DNA from: a virus
Lineage: Duplodnaviria; Caudoviricetes
Length of the DNA: 40,068 nucleotides
IMG/VR virus record: IMGVR_UViG_3300021197_001693
Coordinates: 1 to 40,068 of that record
Strand: one strand, 5' to 3'
A program made the translations under genes and the position numbers. Below are positions 101 through 39,809 of the stretch, piece by piece. Under the pieces are notes generated by a model, which made no database searches, was not told the origin of the DNA, and saw nothing but the letters and a program-made list of their open reading frames with translations. Within the stretch, counting starts at the first letter, position 1. Every line of letters starts with the position of its first letter.

Positions 101-119
101 AGATAACAACGTGTTAGTT
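101..119 (+). other. attI-like simple recombination site at the head of the cassette array
   Basis: AGATAAC-AACGT-GTTAGTT: inverse core, 5-bp spacer, then a GTT core. This is the geometry of an integron simple site, with no attC hairpin. Confidence 0.6.
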
Positions 120-386
120 TGCTTTTAGATTCAATTGGTTTGATGTGTAATAAGCAAAATCATCACAACTATCAACTAAATCAGATACATCATCATCACC
201 CTGTCTTGAGTTATTAGCTGCTAAATTCATACACTTTTCAAAAAGCATTATTCTATCCTCTGCCCTTTTAATGTATATTTCCTGTCTTTCTTTTAACTGT
301 TTTTCTGTCTCCCCACACCCAGAAAGCGAAACTAACAACACGCTCAAAAGGACAATTAACAGTTTGCTATTTTTAATTAAGTTCAT
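114..386 (-). CDS. Cassette 1: predicted lipoprotein
   Basis: Basic N-terminus, hydrophobic stretch LLIVLLSVLLVS and lipobox LSGC. GGAG SD upstream. The stop TAA is the TTA of core site 113-119. Confidence 0.8.
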   Translation of the reverse strand: MNLIKNSKLLIVLLSVLLVSLSGCGETEKQLKERQEIYIKRAEDRIMLFEKCMNLAANNSRQGDDDVSDLVDSCDDFAYYTSNQLNLKAN

Positions 387-448
387 TTTTTTATATCTCC
401 AAGTTATTTATTCGTGGCAGTTAATTGCCGTTTAGCTAAGGGTTATGT
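330..448 (+). repeat. attC site 1 (119 bp)
   Basis: R'' AACTAAC 330-336. Left arm GCT[C]AAAAGG[A]CAATTAAC pairs with GTTAATTGCCGTTTAGC, leaving two extrahelical bases (G and T on the bottom strand). R' GTTATGT 442-448. Confidence 0.88.
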
Positions 449-1180
449 TGCACTAATTCTATCTTGCGCAATCTTAAAGTATTCTTCGTCTAACTCTATA
501 CCGATAAATTTACGGTTTAGGTTTTTACAAGCTACCCCCGTACTGCCGCTACCCATAAATGGGTCAAGAATTGTTGCGCCACCTAAAGAATGGTTAGTTA
601 AAAACCTCTCTAATATTTCAACAGGTTTTATTGTTGGGTGTCCATAAAGCTTTTTATCTTTCTTGTTTATTTGCGAGCTGTAAACCATGCTTTTGCTATG
701 GTAATTACCAAGAATCTTAGATTTATTTCCTTTTATATAAACCCAATACTCGACATCGTTTAAATACTTAAAATTACATAGTGGTGCTGGGTTGGATTTA
801 TGCCAAACGCCAACGCCAACTTGTAATTTATTGCTTTCTGCCCAACAAATATAACTAGATAGTTGCTTCATGCTACAAAAGAACACGCCACAAAACTTTT
901 GCTTGTGATCAAACTTATCTAAACAAGCATCAAGAAAACCAGTTACATCAAAGCCACTTTTACACATTCCCATTTTATCAATGTTTCGTATAAAGTCGCG
1001 GTTATCTCTATCCATCATGCCACCACCAGAATTACTTATTTCATAAGGCGGATCTGTCAATATCATATCAACACTACCATCAGGTATTTCTTTCATTCGC
1101 TCAAGGCAATCACCGTGCATTAACCAAGGTTTTAATTGTTCTTTTTCTAACTCTGCTAGCCTTTCGTTTTCGTAGTGCAT
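443..1180 (-). CDS. Cassette 2: orphan DNA methyltransferase (N6-A/N4-C, beta class)
   Basis: GDCLE...DMILTDPPY catalytic motif precedes HPTIKP and [11 protein letters not shown] (SAM binding). No adjacent restriction enzyme recognised. Confidence 0.93.
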
Positions 1181-1207: not shown

Positions 1208-1291
1208 ACATAACAAGGTTTTCAGGTCAGACTGCCAACAGTTTACTCGTTCCTCGCTGCCTTTTGTCAGCAGCCTAAAACGAGGTTAGTG
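1208..1291 (+). repeat. attC site 2 (84 bp)
   Basis: R'' ACATAAC 1208-1214. GTTTT[C]AGG...G[A]CTGCCAA pairs with TTGTCAGC...CCTAAAAC. R' GTTAGTG 1285-1291. The arms resemble Vibrio-type repeats (GACTGYCAAC...TTGTCAGC). Confidence 0.88.
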
Positions 1292-1579
1292 TGCCTTTGC
1301 GCCAAAATGTTCTTCAGCACAGGTTTTGCAATACCAAACTTGGCAATATAAACATCTATAAGCATAAATCAGCTTTATTTTTTTATGGCAACCGCACTTA
1401 ACTGTTGTTTTATCTGCTGCCATACCCCATCCCGCCTGTTCTTTTATCATTGCTAATTGAAATGATAAAAACTTAAATTTTTCTTCTCGCTGCTCTTCTG
1501 TTGCATTGCTTTTATAAATAGGCAAACTAACAACAGGCTCAATCGGACTTGCTACAGCTGGTTGTTTTTCATCTTTCAT
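1286..1579 (-). CDS. Cassette 3: small Cys/His-rich putative zinc-binding protein
   Basis: CGC...CLYC...CKTC...H at the C-terminus. AAGGTAG SD. The stop is the TTA of core site 1285-1291. Confidence 0.75.
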   Translation of the reverse strand: MKDEKQPAVASPIEPVVSLPIYKSNATEEQREEKFKFLSFQLAMIKEQAGWGMAADKTTVKCGCHKKIKLIYAYRCLYCQVWYCKTCAEEHFGAKAH

Positions 1580-1655
1580 TGTTTTTTCTACCTTATTTAT
1601 TCGTTGTAATATTTGCGCTCATAATCCGCAAGCGCGGTTAGCCTAAAGGCTATAA
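1525..1655 (+). repeat. attC site 3 (131 bp, R' degenerate GCT)
   Basis: R'' AACTAAC 1525-1531. AGGCT[C]AATCGGACTTGC pairs with GCAAGCGCGGTTAGCCT. The R' position reads GCTATAA (1649-1655). Confidence 0.75.
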
Positions 1656-6348: not shown

Positions 6349-6370
6349 TCTTTATTTCTTTAAATCTTTA
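6349..6370. repeat. TCTTTA 8-bp-period repeat (site B)
   Basis: TCTTTATTTCTTTAAATCTTTA, identical to 7556-7577 and 26209-26230. Confidence 0.75.
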
Positions 6371-7539
6371 CTAAATAGGTAGACGTGGTATTTCTCTAAT
6401 GCTTGCCTTTTCTTTTCAAATGCATGTGTCTTAATATAAGTTTCATCAAGCTTTGATAAGGCATGGTTTAACAGCATTTCACCAATAATATAATCAACGC
6501 CACTATCTAACCAAATGGTTCTGGCTAACTTTCTAAGATCATGTGCTGTATACTTTCGTTTTGATATTTTCTGAACCATTACATTTGCAGCACTTTCAGA
6601 AATATAATCACTTCTTTGTGTAGGAAATAAATATTCACTTTTGCCAATAGTTCTTATTTGATAGGTTTTGTATTCTTTTAACATACGCTTGAAGCGCTTT
6701 GTTATTGGTAGAACTAATGCTGGTGATACTCCTTTTGTTATACTGGCTGGTAATGTCATTGTGTTATTTGTCATATCAAAATAACGCCACTTCATCATTC
6801 TAGTTTCGCCTATTCTGGTTCCATGCATCAACATAGTGGACGTTAACATTTTAACAAAGGTAATATCACCTCTAATACTTCTTAATAGCATAGGAACATC
6901 AACAGTGCTTAACGCTGAATCTTTTGGAAGTATCTTTTCTTTGCAAAAATCTTTAAATAACATTTCAGAAAGTGGATTGCCGTTTATTAGTCTTAATTCA
7001 TTGGCCTGTTTAAATGCGCTCTTTAATACGCTGAATATTTGTTTAATGGTTGATGGTTCATGTGATTCAAGCATTGGCATATAAAAGAAAGTATCAATAA
7101 AACTATGATGGAGATCTTTTATTTTTACATCTTTGAATGTTGGCAATAAATGATTGTTAATAGCATTAGCCGTATTCTTTTTAGTTTGCGGTTTTTTCTT
7201 GGGGTTTTTCTCTGTGCGATCTAAATGCCAAGCGAGCAATTTATCAACCATTGTATAATGAACAGCTGTTGCCGTTGAATCATGTAAGTTAACTTGAAGT
7301 TTAACCAATATGTCAGGCAATGCTTTTTTAATGGCTGATGTTGAAACAATGGGCCAGTTACCTATTTTACGGTAATGTGTTTCACCATTCTTAAAAATCA
7401 AACCATACCAGGAACCTTTTGTTCTATCAGTTCTAAACCTAAAGATCAGCGGTAATGATTGATCTCTTATCTCAAAAATAGCCCTTTTTGAAATATACGT
7501 TTTGATAACCTTATCGGACAATGCAACAGTAAAAGACAA
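6352..7539 (-). CDS. int: Tyrosine recombinase / phage integrase family
   Basis: HGTRIGE (R), TKG (K), HDLRK (HxxR), LLNH and ETYI (Y). N-terminal arm-binding-like and SAM-like domains. TTG start. Confidence 0.92.
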   Translation of the reverse strand: MSFTVALSDKVIKTYISKRAIFEIRDQSLPLIFRFRTDRTKGSWYGLIFKNGETHYRKIGNWPIVSTSAIKKALPDILVKLQVNLHDSTATAVHYTMVDKLLAWHLDRTEKNPKKKPQTKKNTANAINNHLLPTFKDVKIKDLHHSFIDTFFYMPMLESHEPSTIKQIFSVLKSAFKQANELRLINGNPLSEMLFKDFCKEKILPKDSALSTVDVPMLLRSIRGDITFVKMLTSTMLMHGTRIGETRMMKWRYFDMTNNTMTLPASITKGVSPALVLPITKRFKRMLKEYKTYQIRTIGKSEYLFPTQRSDYISESAANVMVQKISKRKYTAHDLRKLARTIWLDSGVDYIIGEMLLNHALSKLDETYIKTHAFEKKRQALEKYHVYLFSKDLKK

Positions 7540-7547
7540 AATAAACC

Positions 7548-7582
7548 CCTTTAATTCTTTATTTCTTTAAATCTTTATATTA
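7548..7582. repeat. TCTTTA 8-bp-period repeat x4 (site C), candidate parS/operator between divergent int and parA
   Basis: CCTTTA-AT-TCTTTA-TT-TCTTTA-AA-TCTTTA-TATTA about 40 bp upstream of parA. Confidence 0.75.
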
Positions 7583-7620
7583 TAGTTAGTTTCACAATAA
7601 CAAACCAAAGGTACTTAACA

Positions 7621-8271
7621 ATGAAAATAGCCGTTGTGAAACAAAAAGGTGGTACTGGTGCAAGTGCACTAGCAACCACATTAGCCGTTGAGTTAGCTAG
7701 ACATAGGAAATCATCAACTTTACTAATTGATTTAGATCCTAACCAGCAAACCAGTGCAAACCGTCTTAAAATGCGTTTAACGAACTGTGACGATATACAC
7801 AATGAATCGTCATTATATTTCAAAACAATCAATGATGGTAAAAAAGCCGTGAAAGAATCTAACGACTATTTTCACACTGTTTTTGATGGAGCAGCAACAG
7901 CAAGCCTTAGTACAGGTATTATATCACAAATCAGTGATCTAGTGCTTATACCCACTGGCTTTAGTAAGGATGATTTAGATCCAAATATTACTTTAGCTTA
8001 TGAATTAATGGATGCTGGTGTTCCTTGTGAAAATATTTATATTGTTTTTAGTAATGCTAGTGGCACTTATGCTGAAAAGCGTGAAGCGTTTAAATATTTA
8101 AAACAAACCGATGTTAAATTTCTTGAATTGGTGATAAACAATAAACCATGTTATAGGCAAGCTTTAAATTTAGGTAAGGTATTAACTGAAGTTTCTTTTC
8201 CTGGGCCTAAGAAAAAAGCTAAACAATTAATATGTGAATTATTTTTAATGAGAGGCTTAGATTATGAGTAA
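7621..8271 (+). CDS. parA: ParA-family partition ATPase (short, type Ib)
   Basis: Deviant Walker A QKGGTGAS, LLIDLDPNQQTS, VFDG and SDLVLIPT. No N-terminal HTH. Confidence 0.9.
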   Translation: MKIAVVKQKGGTGASALATTLAVELARHRKSSTLLIDLDPNQQTSANRLKMRLTNCDDIHNESSLYFKTINDGKKAVKESNDYFHTVFDGAATASLSTGIISQISDLVLIPTGFSKDDLDPNITLAYELMDAGVPCENIYIVFSNASGTYAEKREAFKYLKQTDVKFLELVINNKPCYRQALNLGKVLTEVSFPGPKKKAKQLICELFLMRGLDYE

Positions 8272-8479
8272 ATTAGGTGAAGCGCCAAGGCGTGGCTTTA
8301 AAAAAAATATGCTTAAGGCTAATTCGCCGAAGGATAAAAAGTTAGTAAATTTTGAAGCGACTTCTGATCAAGTGAAAATATGGAAGAACTTTTGTACTGA
8401 CAATAACGTTTCAATGAAGGAATTATTTACTGAAGGTGCAAAGCTTTATATAGAGCAAAAAGAACAAGGGAATGTTTAG
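8264..8479 (+). CDS. Small partition partner (ParG-like ribbon-helix-helix candidate)
   Basis: 71 aa overlapping the parA stop. Flexible basic N-terminus, then LVNFEA strand and two helices (WKNFC...VSMKELF). Confidence 0.7.
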   Translation: MSKLGEAPRRGFKKNMLKANSPKDKKLVNFEATSDQVKIWKNFCTDNNVSMKELFTEGAKLYIEQKEQGNV

Positions 8480-8732: not shown

Positions 8733-9258
8733 ATCTTTCCAACTCTTTAAAACGATTCATAAACCTTTCATAAGAACGCTTTTGATCCCACACTTCACTA
8801 ACTCGTAATATTTTATTCATTGGTATATGGTCCAAGTTATAAAATGTTTCATCAGTTCCAGGCATTAATAAATCACGCTCAGCTTTCAACATTGTAAGAT
8901 CAGCTGTTTTTATTTCTGGTGGTAATGGGTGCTTTACCCCAAATGTTTTGAATAAAGCAATTTCAATAATGCTTTCTATTTTTTTATAATCAGGAAGTAA
9001 ATTTTTAAGTGGTGTTGAAACGTCACCAATTATTGCTTCAGCACTATCATGCATCAATGCATCATAAGCTAAATTATCAGGAACCAAGTAGGAACAAAGC
9101 ACTGAATGTTGTGCAACTGAATAAAATTCAGCGGTATGACCATTGAAACGACAAAGGTTTGATAATGACCAAGCGATAGTTTCAATTTTTATTTTGCTAA
9201 AATTAGGGTTTAATAAATCAATGTACTGATCTTGTTTAATGTGAATTAGGCTTTTCAT
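8731..9258 (-). CDS. HD-domain phosphohydrolase (YfbR-like 5'-deoxynucleotidase)
   Basis: CRFNGH..FYSVAQHS, ALMHDSAEA.IGD and ADL motifs. Confidence 0.85.
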   Translation of the reverse strand: MKSLIHIKQDQYIDLLNPNFSKIKIETIAWSLSNLCRFNGHTAEFYSVAQHSVLCSYLVPDNLAYDALMHDSAEAIIGDVSTPLKNLLPDYKKIESIIEIALFKTFGVKHPLPPEIKTADLTMLKAERDLLMPGTDETFYNLDHIPMNKILRVSEVWDQKRSYERFMNRFKELER

Positions 9259-9884
9259 TACTTAATAACTCCCAACGATGAAAAAACTTCTTTGAACAAA
9301 TCTTTTCTTGGTCCAATGTAAGTAATAATTGAACCTTTCGTTACTTGGTTAGTTTTGTGACCATTACTATCATTGTATTGTGTTCTACCATTGATAAAAC
9401 AAGTGACACCAGCGTTCAATAATAACTGACACCATTTTTCGGAACTGTTGCAAAACGTAATATTGAGTGATTCTTTTACGTTACCCACTAAATGCTCAGA
9501 CAATAATTTTTCAATCCAATCAAGGTTACTTGGAATATCTTCAGTTATACAATGGCCCCTGGTGATCAAATTGCCTTGCTTGTACTTTGGAATACAATTT
9601 TTCTTCTTGCAAATTTTCTTACGGCCTTTTTTCGGCTTACAAGCTTTTTCACCTTTGGTAAACGGGTGATTCATCCAAAGTTTAGCGGCTATCCAAGGTT
9701 GTTCTAAACCATTTTGTTCTTCAGTGAAATATTCTTTAGCCTGAACCGTTGTGTTAGCCAACTCACAAGAAGCTGGATCCAGATCTATTTCACTAAACAT
9801 TTTATGAACCAATTCTATAATTTCATAGTTGGTATAGTATTCAACGTTTCCACTGTCTTGATTTATTAATTTTGAATTGTTCAT
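9258..9884 (-). CDS. Phage DNA N6-adenine methyltransferase family protein
   Basis: EYYT, IDLDPASC..AN, NGL.Q.W and WMNHPF (variant of NPPY). Cys-rich basic insertion. Confidence 0.75.
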   Translation of the reverse strand: MNNSKLINQDSGNVEYYTNYEIIELVHKMFSEIDLDPASCELANTTVQAKEYFTEEQNGLEQPWIAAKLWMNHPFTKGEKACKPKKGRKKICKKKNCIPKYKQGNLITRGHCITEDIPSNLDWIEKLLSEHLVGNVKESLNITFCNSSEKWCQLLLNAGVTCFINGRTQYNDSNGHKTNQVTKGSIITYIGPRKDLFKEVFSSLGVIK

Positions 9885-10714: not shown

Positions 10715-11575
10715 TTAGTGTTTAGTGTCTGACTGATGAAACAGATCAACGCCTATAGCGTTCATACGCTGCCATGTAAGCTTGCTAAACGCCTCATAGC
10801 TCATATCGTGTATTTGATCAGGATCTTGCTTCATAAGTGACTGTGCAACATCATAACGCCTATCATCAATTGACTTATTAGCAAGTTTAGCTTTTATTCT
10901 TCCAGCCCTTGCACCATGCTTTCTACTTTCCCACGCTTTCATAAAGATCATGTTTTTCTTTAATTGGCGAAGTTCACGAATAGTTGGCATTTGACCATCA
11001 GTGATCAAACCTTCTTGCTTGGCAATAAATAACTGATCACGTTGATTGTTAAGGCTTTCTAAGTTAGCCCCACATATTCTATAAAACTGATCTGTTAACA
11101 CTAATATTTTAGGGAACCATATTCCATTGGTACGATCCCAAACCATTCCGGTTCGTCCTGTTTTATCACCATCACATTGAACATAAGCCAAGCCAAAGCG
11201 GATCATTACATCATCAATAAAGCGGCTAACGCGGCAAACAGGAACCTTTGATTTGGTTTTTATCTTTACACCATTATCATCTTCAGTAATTGAATATGAT
11301 AATTCTTCAGCCATTTGTTCAAGGTTAAGTTCAATAATGCCTGTCACAAGATCATGACGATTTAAGATAAGCTCAAACATTGCTTGCATAAATGTTCTGC
11401 GGCAACGTTTAAAATCACGCTTGCGCCCCATAACAGAACGCAATTGAACGAATAGAGGATCACGCGATACATCACGCTTTTTTAAGAAATTATACGTTTT
11501 ACCAAGTTCACCTGGTAAGTTTTTCCAGTGTGCAGGACGTTGCCACACTGGATTAGTGTTTATACAATTGGACAT
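10715..11575 (-). CDS. repA: Plasmid replication initiator, IncFII RepA-like
   Basis: 286 aa. The order NTNPVW, GRKRDF...RR, HDLVT..IELNLEQMAEEL, VCRVSRFI...FGL, WD...G.WFPK.LVLTDQF parallels IncFII RepA. Confidence 0.75.
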   Translation of the reverse strand: MSNCINTNPVWQRPAHWKNLPGELGKTYNFLKKRDVSRDPLFVQLRSVMGRKRDFKRCRRTFMQAMFELILNRHDLVTGIIELNLEQMAEELSYSITEDDNGVKIKTKSKVPVCRVSRFIDDVMIRFGLAYVQCDGDKTGRTGMVWDRTNGIWFPKILVLTDQFYRICGANLESLNNQRDQLFIAKQEGLITDGQMPTIRELRQLKKNMIFMKAWESRKHGARAGRIKAKLANKSIDDRRYDVAQSLMKQDPDQIHDMSYEAFSKLTWQRMNAIGVDLFHQSDTKH

Positions 11576-34824: not shown

Positions 34825-35046
34825 TTAATTTATATCAACCATAGCATCAACAAGGCCGCGAGCTGCACAAAAATCAACACCAATATCAACACCCGCTGAA
34901 TTTAACTGTTCTTTGATTACAATTCTTAATTCTGGGTTTACTGATTGACAGTAATTTTTTGATATATCACCAAACTTATATGTTGAAGAACAGCTTGCTA
35001 ACAACAAAATAAAAACAATTATACTTACTCTTTTTAAACCTACCAT
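34825..35046 (-). CDS. Small lipoprotein (possible lysis accessory)
   Basis: KR plus a hydrophobic stretch and LASC lipobox. Confidence 0.7.
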   Translation of the reverse strand: MVGLKRVSIIVFILLLASCSSTYKFGDISKNYCQSVNPELRIVIKEQLNSAGVDIGVDFCAARGLVDAMVDIN

Positions 35047-39245: not shown

Positions 39246-39809
39246 TTACATACAGTTTAATAGTGCTGGATATTGCAAGCCAATAGGAGCGAATGGTATA
39301 TCCTCATCAAAATCAATTGATGGCTCTTGTGGGTTTACTTTAGGTGCTTGTTGTTGAGTATAACCACCTTGTTGCTGTGGTACTTGTTGTTGATATGAAT
39401 TCTGTTGGTGCTGTTGTTTTTGATATGGGTGTCCTTGTTGACCATCAAAGCCACCTTGCTTTGGTTTACCGTCAAGCATCTGCATAACACCACTAAAACC
39501 TTGCACATGAATTTCAGTAGTATATTGATCTTGCCCTTGTTGATTGGCCCACTTGCGCGTGGTTAATTTACCTTCAATGTAAATTTTAGAACCTTTCTTT
39601 AAATATTCACCTGCTACTTCAGCAAGTTTGCCAAAAAGAACGACACGATGCCATTCTGTTTTTTCGCAGTTTTCACCTGTTTGTTTATCCTTCCATGTAT
39701 CAGAAGTTGCAACAGTAATATTTGCAACAGCACTACCGTTTGGCATAAAACGCACTTCAGGATCTTTACCAAGATTACCAACTATGATTACTTTATTAAC
39801 ACCAGCCAT
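39246..39809 (-). CDS. ssb: Single-stranded DNA-binding protein
   Basis: [31 protein letters not shown]-rich linker and FDEDIPF. Confidence 0.97.

Follow-up and report, generated by a model that had tools for sequence, protein, structure and literature searches.

The window, meaning the whole stretch of DNA that was analysed, is an entire virus record of 40,068 bases with an estimated completeness of 92%. One open reading frame (ORF) continues in frame over both record ends, so the record is probably circular. The genome encodes an IncFII-type RepA, a ParA-like ATPase and a phage integrase, and the remaining large ORFs make up what we take to be a podovirus-like structural module. The virus is likely a phage-plasmid; the tyrosine integrase and the plasmid-type RepA, with ParA and a small partner, lie at 6352-8479 and 10715-11575. 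A Dam-like methyltransferase, the second methyltransferase in the genome, is found at 9258-9884, and an ordinary lipoprotein-like ORF of about 73 aa (34825-35046, minus strand), which we assume to be perhaps a spanin-type gene, lies near putative lysis genes without an attC. Close to the start of the record, three attC sites fall within 1.4 kb in a run of minus-strand genes, with a Ref-like nuclease gene (1650-2135) at one side and, across the origin, presumably an ssb-like gene at the other. The array contains the following features.

101..119, plus strand: collapsed site at the left end of the array (R''-like AGATAAC, 5-nt spacer, GTTAGTT), stemless, with a predicted crossover at G113/T114
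114..442: first cassette, a unit of 329 bp composed of the gene at 114..386 (minus strand) and the attC at 330..448 (plus strand)
443..1180, minus strand: neighbouring cassette gene, an N6/N4 DNA methyltransferase, with its start outside its own attC and its stop at crossover 442
1208..1291, plus strand: second attC, 84 bp, heading the methyltransferase cassette, with no internal start
1286..1579, minus strand: third cassette gene, 97 aa, with a Cys-rich C-terminus, starting in the loop of its own attC
1525..1655, plus strand: third attC, with intact sister sites in locus L035

All three cassettes have complementary ends and are bounded by G|TT crossovers. The second attC scored 7.7 with our crude attC scorer, inside the shuffled range, and is backed by the complementarity of its cassette ends (16 of 17 nt). 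In the third attC the R' box has GCT in place of GTT and shares bases with the TAG that ends the Ref-like nuclease gene; the difference between TAA and TAG in this stop would turn off the outermost crossover (1649-1655) and fix the array end. At the opposite end, a TAAC-N5-GTTA motif resembling 101-119 also directly follows the lipoprotein ORF of locus L022, and these stemless end sites may have arisen from attCs that collapsed, through slippage or recombination at the L boxes, or may instead represent a minimal attI-like entry site. A promoter and terminator scan of 1-2400 gave chance-level results. Contigs from four of the ten listed sequencing runs contained no piece spanning the array and no joint at a GTT crossover, which is uninformative either way.

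The stretch at 330-448 has integron attC anatomy, with AAC/GTT triplets in R'' and R', 5-nt spacers and L''/L' boxes all present and a length within the 57-141 bp range. Its parts are arranged as follows.

330..448, plus (top) strand: attC, 119 bp, recognised from sequence, scorer, bulge register and constrained fold
330..336, plus strand: R'' box AACTAAC, which contributes to codons L17-V19 on the minus strand
337-341, plus strand: spacer, 5 nt
342..360, plus strand: L'' arm (L'' box 342-349, stem to 360), with extrahelical C345 and A352; its minus strand is coding
361..419, plus strand: variable terminal loop, 59 nt, holding the translation start
420-436, plus strand: L' arm, non-coding
437-441, plus strand: spacer, 5 nt
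442-448, plus strand: R' box GTTATGT, non-coding, with a predicted crossover at G442/T443

Compared with the attC-aadA7 bottom strand (PMC9892861, Table S3), the bulged bases on the bottom strand, a G at the fourth and a T at the eleventh position from the spacer, lie in the same register, which makes the plus strand the top strand and the minus strand the bottom strand. The opposite assignment, in which the minus strand is the attC top strand and the start codon a gift of the upstream methyltransferase cassette, was ruled out by the bulge position and the end complementarity. The site scored 11.7, the highest of 11 sites at or above 7.5 in the window, while the best score in 10 block shuffles was 8.5 and the opposite orientation of the site scored 6.4; a first scorer had, at its threshold, picked just the R'' of this site in the window. 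Plain folding energy was no better than that of shuffles (z of 0.39, −0.17 and 0.37) because the loop is long and A/T-rich. Under constraints that were set in this analysis and differ from those of PMC5371416, with R and L pairs enforced, the recombinogenic fold had a probability of 0.15 on either strand, with medians over 20 sites of 0.11 for the bottom and 0.14 for the top strand. The stems are near-invariant within the family, so no covariation was available.

The gene of the first cassette overlaps its attC on the bottom strand, with the following elements.

114..386, minus strand: predicted lipoprotein, 90 aa, an ORF on the attC bottom strand, PHROG 10627
397..400, minus strand: Shine-Dalgarno (SD)-like GGAG in the attC loop
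384..386, minus strand: ATG start codon in the attC loop, 10 nt from GGAG
315..329, minus strand: flank coding for S-L-S-G-C, a constant part of the head common to unrelated bodies and beyond the attC proper
114..126, minus strand: constant tail coding for K-A-N-stop, complementary to the R'' flank

The original prediction had placed the SD and the ATG in the attC loop, which these coordinates bear out, and had held that the attC also encodes a lipoprotein signal peptide. The latter is true of the hydrophobic core, since residues L9-V19 (LLIVLLSVLLV) are encoded by 362-330 on the minus strand, that is, by the left arm and R'', but not of the lipobox, L21-S22-G23-C24 at 326-315, which lies just outside. 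In the predicted mRNA, where the original prediction expected the SD and AUG in a hairpin loop, the SD-to-AUG stretch is mostly unpaired (mean 0.79), although the minimum-energy RNA fold differs from the full attC hairpin. At the other end of the gene, the TTA that follows crossover G113, when read backwards, yields the stop TAA (116-114), and the complementarity of the K-A-N-stop tail to the R'' flank would lengthen the stem in the excised circle.

With basic residues K5 and K8, a core hydropathy of 3.6 and a pattern-based LSGC lipobox, the product shows the sequence pattern of Sec/SPII export and is a predicted lipoprotein. A lipobox-type N-terminus occurs in just 2 of the 74 ATG-started ORFs of at least 60 aa in the window, and G23 and C24 are invariant in 14 homologues, some of which carry unrelated leaders. 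The mature part is predicted to form a two-helix hairpin with two conserved Cys (AlphaFold model, pLDDT 82, pTM 0.59). Foldseek returned no match at E ≤ 0.001 in BFVD or PDB, the best score in ESM Atlas was 0.78 to unnamed clusters, no Pfam family was matched by the 90-aa protein, and a match to EexN stayed below the family threshold (15.8 bits against a cut-off of 33, E 0.0098). Among 50,697 cultured phage records, blastn with 330-448 and with the third attC and tblastn with the 90-aa protein yielded nothing convincing. A search of viral contigs for loci of the 90-aa protein confirmed none, and alignment then found three.

A first homologue search returned five proteins alike only in their leader and in a C-terminal KAN. 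We describe this family in terms of a constant head, which comprises the attC-encoded leader and the lipobox flank, a variable body and a constant tail. Sister sites were chosen by the non-coding right arm, which avoids selection on the coding arm, leaving 19 evaluable sites after omission of L015 (the window's own sequence), L008 (cut by a contig end) and L020 (the same as L012), and of L004-L006, L011, L014, L024, L028 and one L023 site as duplicates. The left arm and an in-frame ATG are kept in 18 of the 19 and a lipobox in 16. The exceptions include L025, where the head is joined to a membrane protein without a lipobox, and L016 (1657-1740), where the attC-started ORF ends after 27 codons and overlaps the start region of the next gene, an arrangement that recalls ORF-11-type translational coupling. 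In L027 the right arm, loop SD and ATG are kept and the left arm is lost; an unrelated gene for a soluble-looking protein takes the place of the arm, joined at the start codon.

A search for unrelated proteins with attC-derived leaders, suggested as a check in the original prediction, was positive: 57 leader proteins, obtained once hits of a profile search had been added to the sites chosen by the right arm, collapse to 50 distinct bodies and these to 30 blastp clusters, after three apparent chance matches (P0012 by length, P0043 and P0045 by leader pattern) had been removed before the count. The bodies match at least six different PHROGs, and 8 of the 50 or more sit in clusters of three or more, with a median site identity of 88% across bodies. 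KAN ends 27 of the complete leader proteins. As the profile used to collect this set contains the lipobox, the presence of a lipobox in 55 of the 57 is a biased count.

All 21 sister sites place the ATG in one common frame. Its distance to GTT is 41 or 50 nt in every one of them, while the distance from the start of the site to the ATG ranges over 55-64 nt in all three phases, so selection acts on the frame. In 22 of 22 rows the ATG has an SD-like motif ahead of it. These counts bear directly on a chance overlap between the start of a lipoprotein gene and an attC-like inverted repeat, which could be imagined given that T-rich attC bottom strands read as hydrophobic without selection: L047 and L049, related attCs in bacterial arrays, read VLSVLL in a bottom-strand frame that has no start. 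The shared frame in 21 of 21 sites despite varying loop length, the dozens of unrelated bodies and the closer match of the sites to the far ends of their own genes than to their neighbours (described below) refute such a coincidence, to which we assign practically no probability.

To which gene the site belongs can be read from its flanks. With both ends available for 18 sites, the R'' flank agreed at four of four bases with the far end of the site's own gene in 13 and with the adjacent neighbour in 3, mean matches being 8.0 and 4.8 of 10, respectively, and the R'' flank and far end switch together between the AGTT and ATGT classes. Only one pair among 20 sites has an upstream neighbour in common, cassettes with related bodies (the window and L001; L003, L017 and L022) have different upstream neighbours, and neighbours change exactly at the crossover. 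Ownership by the upstream methyltransferase would make the leader a fortuitous gift; because the R'' flank fits the gene's own far end and neighbours differ, the flanking sequences indicate that the attC moves with the gene it heads.

Judging by profile matches, the array neighbours are phage-like, with 16 of 29 flanking ORFs at 17 loci matching PHROGs that include primase, Erf, Sak4, Gam, NinB, SSB and endolysin; Erf, Sak4, Gam, NinB or SSB genes adjoin the arrays in L014, L025 and L029. More broadly, ssb and recombination genes repeatedly adjoin the arrays (L001, L002, L003, L014, L025, L029 and window 39246-39809). Cassettes with the same head occur twice in one array, either 635 nt apart (L013/L014) or in tandem (L019, one of the two without a right arm).

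We then asked where the bodies reside outside cassettes. A free member of the window's body family (PHROG 10627) is present in L038, where the leader is ordinary and attC is absent. In L039 the family stands under another attC, a GC-rich one whose loop again holds SD and ATG; the scorer missed this site because its R' is CAAC on the gene strand, and folding revealed the stem. Cultured-phage records matching the L021 body number 1064, among them the T4 gp39.1-like gene of phage Bp7; for the L026 body the matches are Cellulophaga phage genes and for the L002 body Vibrio phage genes. No attC-like site was found at the start of the free genes (scores 0, 4.9 and 0), which have leaders of their own. 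Three of four free leaders end in a lipobox, those of L038, L053 and L054 being ordinary lipoprotein signal peptides, and the L055 leader is non-lipoprotein. Since these three bodies have free homologues with ordinary leaders and no attC, the head evidently replaced existing leaders rather than newly exporting arbitrary proteins.

The breakpoints of this replacement are visible in 12 AGTT-class cassettes, where conservation extends through the lipobox Cys codon, drops to background and returns for roughly the last 12-14 nt ahead of the far crossover. L014 and L023, which have a private R'' variant in common, show 99.5% identity along 2715 nt that end in the lipobox, where they part into unrelated bodies, although, both being low-coverage metagenome contigs, a chimera at the repeat is possible. 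Free signal-peptide DNA resembles the arm beyond shuffles in two of four genes (p 0.002 and 0.013), a likeness that is suggestive only and partly reflects common protein architecture.

These data also bear on the possibility that the cassettes with in-attC starts are real and none is newly made, their variety stemming from a few ancient captures followed by homologous recombination through the common head, or from one fast-diverging, hypervariable lipoprotein. The heads are near-identical repeats (median 88%) that would allow easy crossovers, the L014/L023 switch equally fits an exchange between two existing cassettes, and some bodies are related to one another, as the clusters of three or more show. 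Against this, the 30 clusters have no detectable similarity, and bodies match separate free families with their own leaders, each of which needed a capture; a single diverging ancestor is insufficient because those families exist outside cassettes. We regard an origin without new cassettes as unlikely.

Read on the bottom strand, the coding arm is open in two frames. The third gene of the window (1286..1579) uses the other frame and thereby acquires a hydrophilic leader, as do three further sites, and the related attCs of L047, L049 and L051 in bacterial arrays have no bottom-strand start, the cassette genes of L051 lying on the top strand. Long attCs of a second class, also holding SD and ATG in the loop, use this other frame, so that unrelated small proteins begin with hydrophilic N-termini (window 1286-1655; L034 4850-4979; L035 8190-8318, 12218-12351 and 13965-14095; L019 near 3377). 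Among 36 strictly scored phage sites, in proportions biased by the fetching of loci with the window's own site type, 21 start a bottom-strand ORF and 15 have no internal start; in 12 of those 15 the longer downstream ORF is on the bottom strand, and 2 of the other 3 are at contig ends or near ties. Because other attC types give hydrophilic leaders or none, export is a property of one attC lineage read in one frame, most likely a co-opted one.

The original prediction had gone further, proposing that the site supplies a ready-made translation and export module to whatever sequence is captured. A general capture device of this kind could accommodate the membrane protein without a lipobox in L025, the 27-codon ORF in L016 and the soluble-looking protein in L027. 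It fits poorly with the presence of a lipobox at 16 of 19 evaluable sites, with the three tested bodies whose free homologues are lipoproteins and with the hydrophilic or absent leaders of other attC types, and we consider it very improbable.

No match to the IntI model TIGR02249 was found in the genome (92% complete), and the 6352-7539 recombinase, which matches PHROG 1 and no IntI model, is of the generic phage integrase type. No tyrosine recombinase was found in four related records, one of which is complete. Being an attC cluster without IntI, the array is a CALIN and not a complete integron. CALINs have been described in phages such as Pseudoalteromonas phage PH101 and TJE1, with methyltransferase cassettes and with attC bottom strands that are recombined by IntI1, the listed bottom strands being the more recombinogenic (Qi et al. 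2023, PMC9892861). When we located the PH101 sites, their bottom strands proved to lie on the gene strand, so that the inverted layout was already present in the published PH101 sequence; the available text of PMC9892861 does not remark on it. The present array thus resembles the PH101 and TJE1 CALINs in having attCs without intI, a DNA methyltransferase cassette and, as in PH101, bottom-strand genes. By contrast, PMC9892861 calls its arrays typical and, in the sections available, does not mention inverted genes, in-attC starts or signal peptides, and the PH101 sites tested there are short and have no internal start, unlike the long site with a start in the window.

The hairpin might alternatively be a fossil, or an attC-like element specific to phages, whose present role would be that of translation signal and homology cassette, with no integron integrase moving it. 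Several observations would suit such an element, namely the lack of IntI in the phage, the weak folding, the degenerate ends of the array (collapsed at 101-119, GCT at 1649) and the left-arm pattern, which had no match in 185,579 prokaryote genomes. However, sites with unrelated bodies retain the non-coding right arm, the two bulges and the GTT/AAC triplets, neighbours switch exactly at the crossover, close relatives are canonical attCs in bacterial arrays, and IntI1 recombines phage attCs that share this layout according to the available parts of PMC9892861, so that we give the fossil only a slight chance. In prokaryote genomes the right-arm pattern hit eight loci, comprising three canonical attCs, one attC cut by an IS-like gene and four chance-like matches. 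In L045 (near 335-360), a bacterial attC of the related type is interrupted by a transposase-like gene.

Relative to canonical integron cassettes, the first cassette has the same R''/L''/L'/R' boxes, two bulges, size and complementary ends, but its gene is antisense to the attC top strand, its attC lies 5' and is translated, and its stop comes from the R' crossover rather than from R''. The canonical layout of a top-strand ORF followed by a 3' attC is not found in the window, where all three genes are on the bottom strand. Short ORFs with an SD and ATG are known from attI1 (ORF-11, ORF-17 and ORF-18) and within attC, where they support translation of cassette genes, and N-terminal fusions have been described (PMC8876359). 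As far as that source's available text goes, these are coupling peptides or fixed signals of the top-strand platform, whereas here the attC-encoded residues form the predicted targeting signal of the mobile protein itself and would travel with it. Sites of attC type have also been engineered into coding sequence as linkers and lacZ inserts (Nivina et al. 2020, PMC7439510), and these synthetic sites, like that of the window, combine attC and protein code in one DNA; the window's is a natural family with a conserved frame. Insertion at attG (bioRxiv 10.1101/2022.09.11.507474) is a possible route by which a host IntI could have brought the first cassette into the phage, yet the outer junction of the array is G|CT and not the attG GWT consensus, and attG, as described in the available text, explains neither inverted genes nor common leaders. 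Cassette proteins are reported to be enriched in signal peptides (PMC10661359), and the available text of PMC8946536 holds nothing on in-attC starts or signal peptides. A literature search, in which subscription journals were poorly covered, turned up no report of phage cassettes whose starts or signal peptides are naturally encoded by attC.

Taking these observations together, we hold it probable that 330-448 is an attC of a phage-borne, integrase-less array with bottom-strand genes, and that its head, lipobox flank and KAN-stop tail form a reusable frame fitted onto numerous existing phage lipoprotein genes. As no IntI was found in the genome, present-day recombination is something we infer, with a host IntI acting in trans; such an enzyme would excise and reorder the 329-bp unit 114-442 at G|TT, the unit carrying its own start and the crossover supplying the stop (TAA). 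The hydrophobic reading would have been latent in the T-rich arm of this attC lineage and co-opted once an SD and ATG arose in the variable loop. Bodies might then be exchanged by IntI-independent recombination at signal-peptide or lipobox codons, probably through phage single-strand annealing proteins, with selection retaining in-frame lipoprotein fusions. Lipoproteins are lipidated and processed by the Lgt/LspA pathway, through which the product is predicted to pass, with lipidation at C24 and a location in the host envelope. Small phage lipoproteins of this kind would most often serve to block a second infection; the one pointer to exclusion for this protein is the sub-threshold EexN match, and superinfection exclusion, raised by the original prediction, is a guess that we consider rather doubtful.

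According to the available text of two papers, the origin of cassettes is largely unknown (PMC5371416) and an outstanding question (PMC8618304). The family described here offers a constant frame, two visible breakpoints, one at the lipobox and one ahead of the stop, and identified free donor families such as the T4 gp39.1-like gene, which makes one route of cassette making directly testable. A bolder extension, which we put forward tentatively and would not bet on, is that phages are workshops of integron cassette genesis, where the inverted attC, its arm resembling the codons of a signal peptide, may serve as a landing pad and phage recombinases may swap mature lipoprotein parts into the frame between attC-lipobox and KAN; if true, this would generate new self-starting, IntI-mobile cassettes with exact gene limits and without reverse transcription. 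The family also shows that an attC can serve in nature as coding sequence, with two constraints acting on it, and that the orientation of phage arrays is antisense to that of the textbook layout. For annotation, cassette amplicons or calls bounded by R boxes would cut off the starts of such genes, and the phage would gain an exchangeable set of envelope proteins whose movement relies on the integrase of its host. As a minor observation, the PH101 CALIN (NC_029094.1, about 75.9-78.0 kb, L044) also has two long direct repeats with flanking AT-rich sequence.
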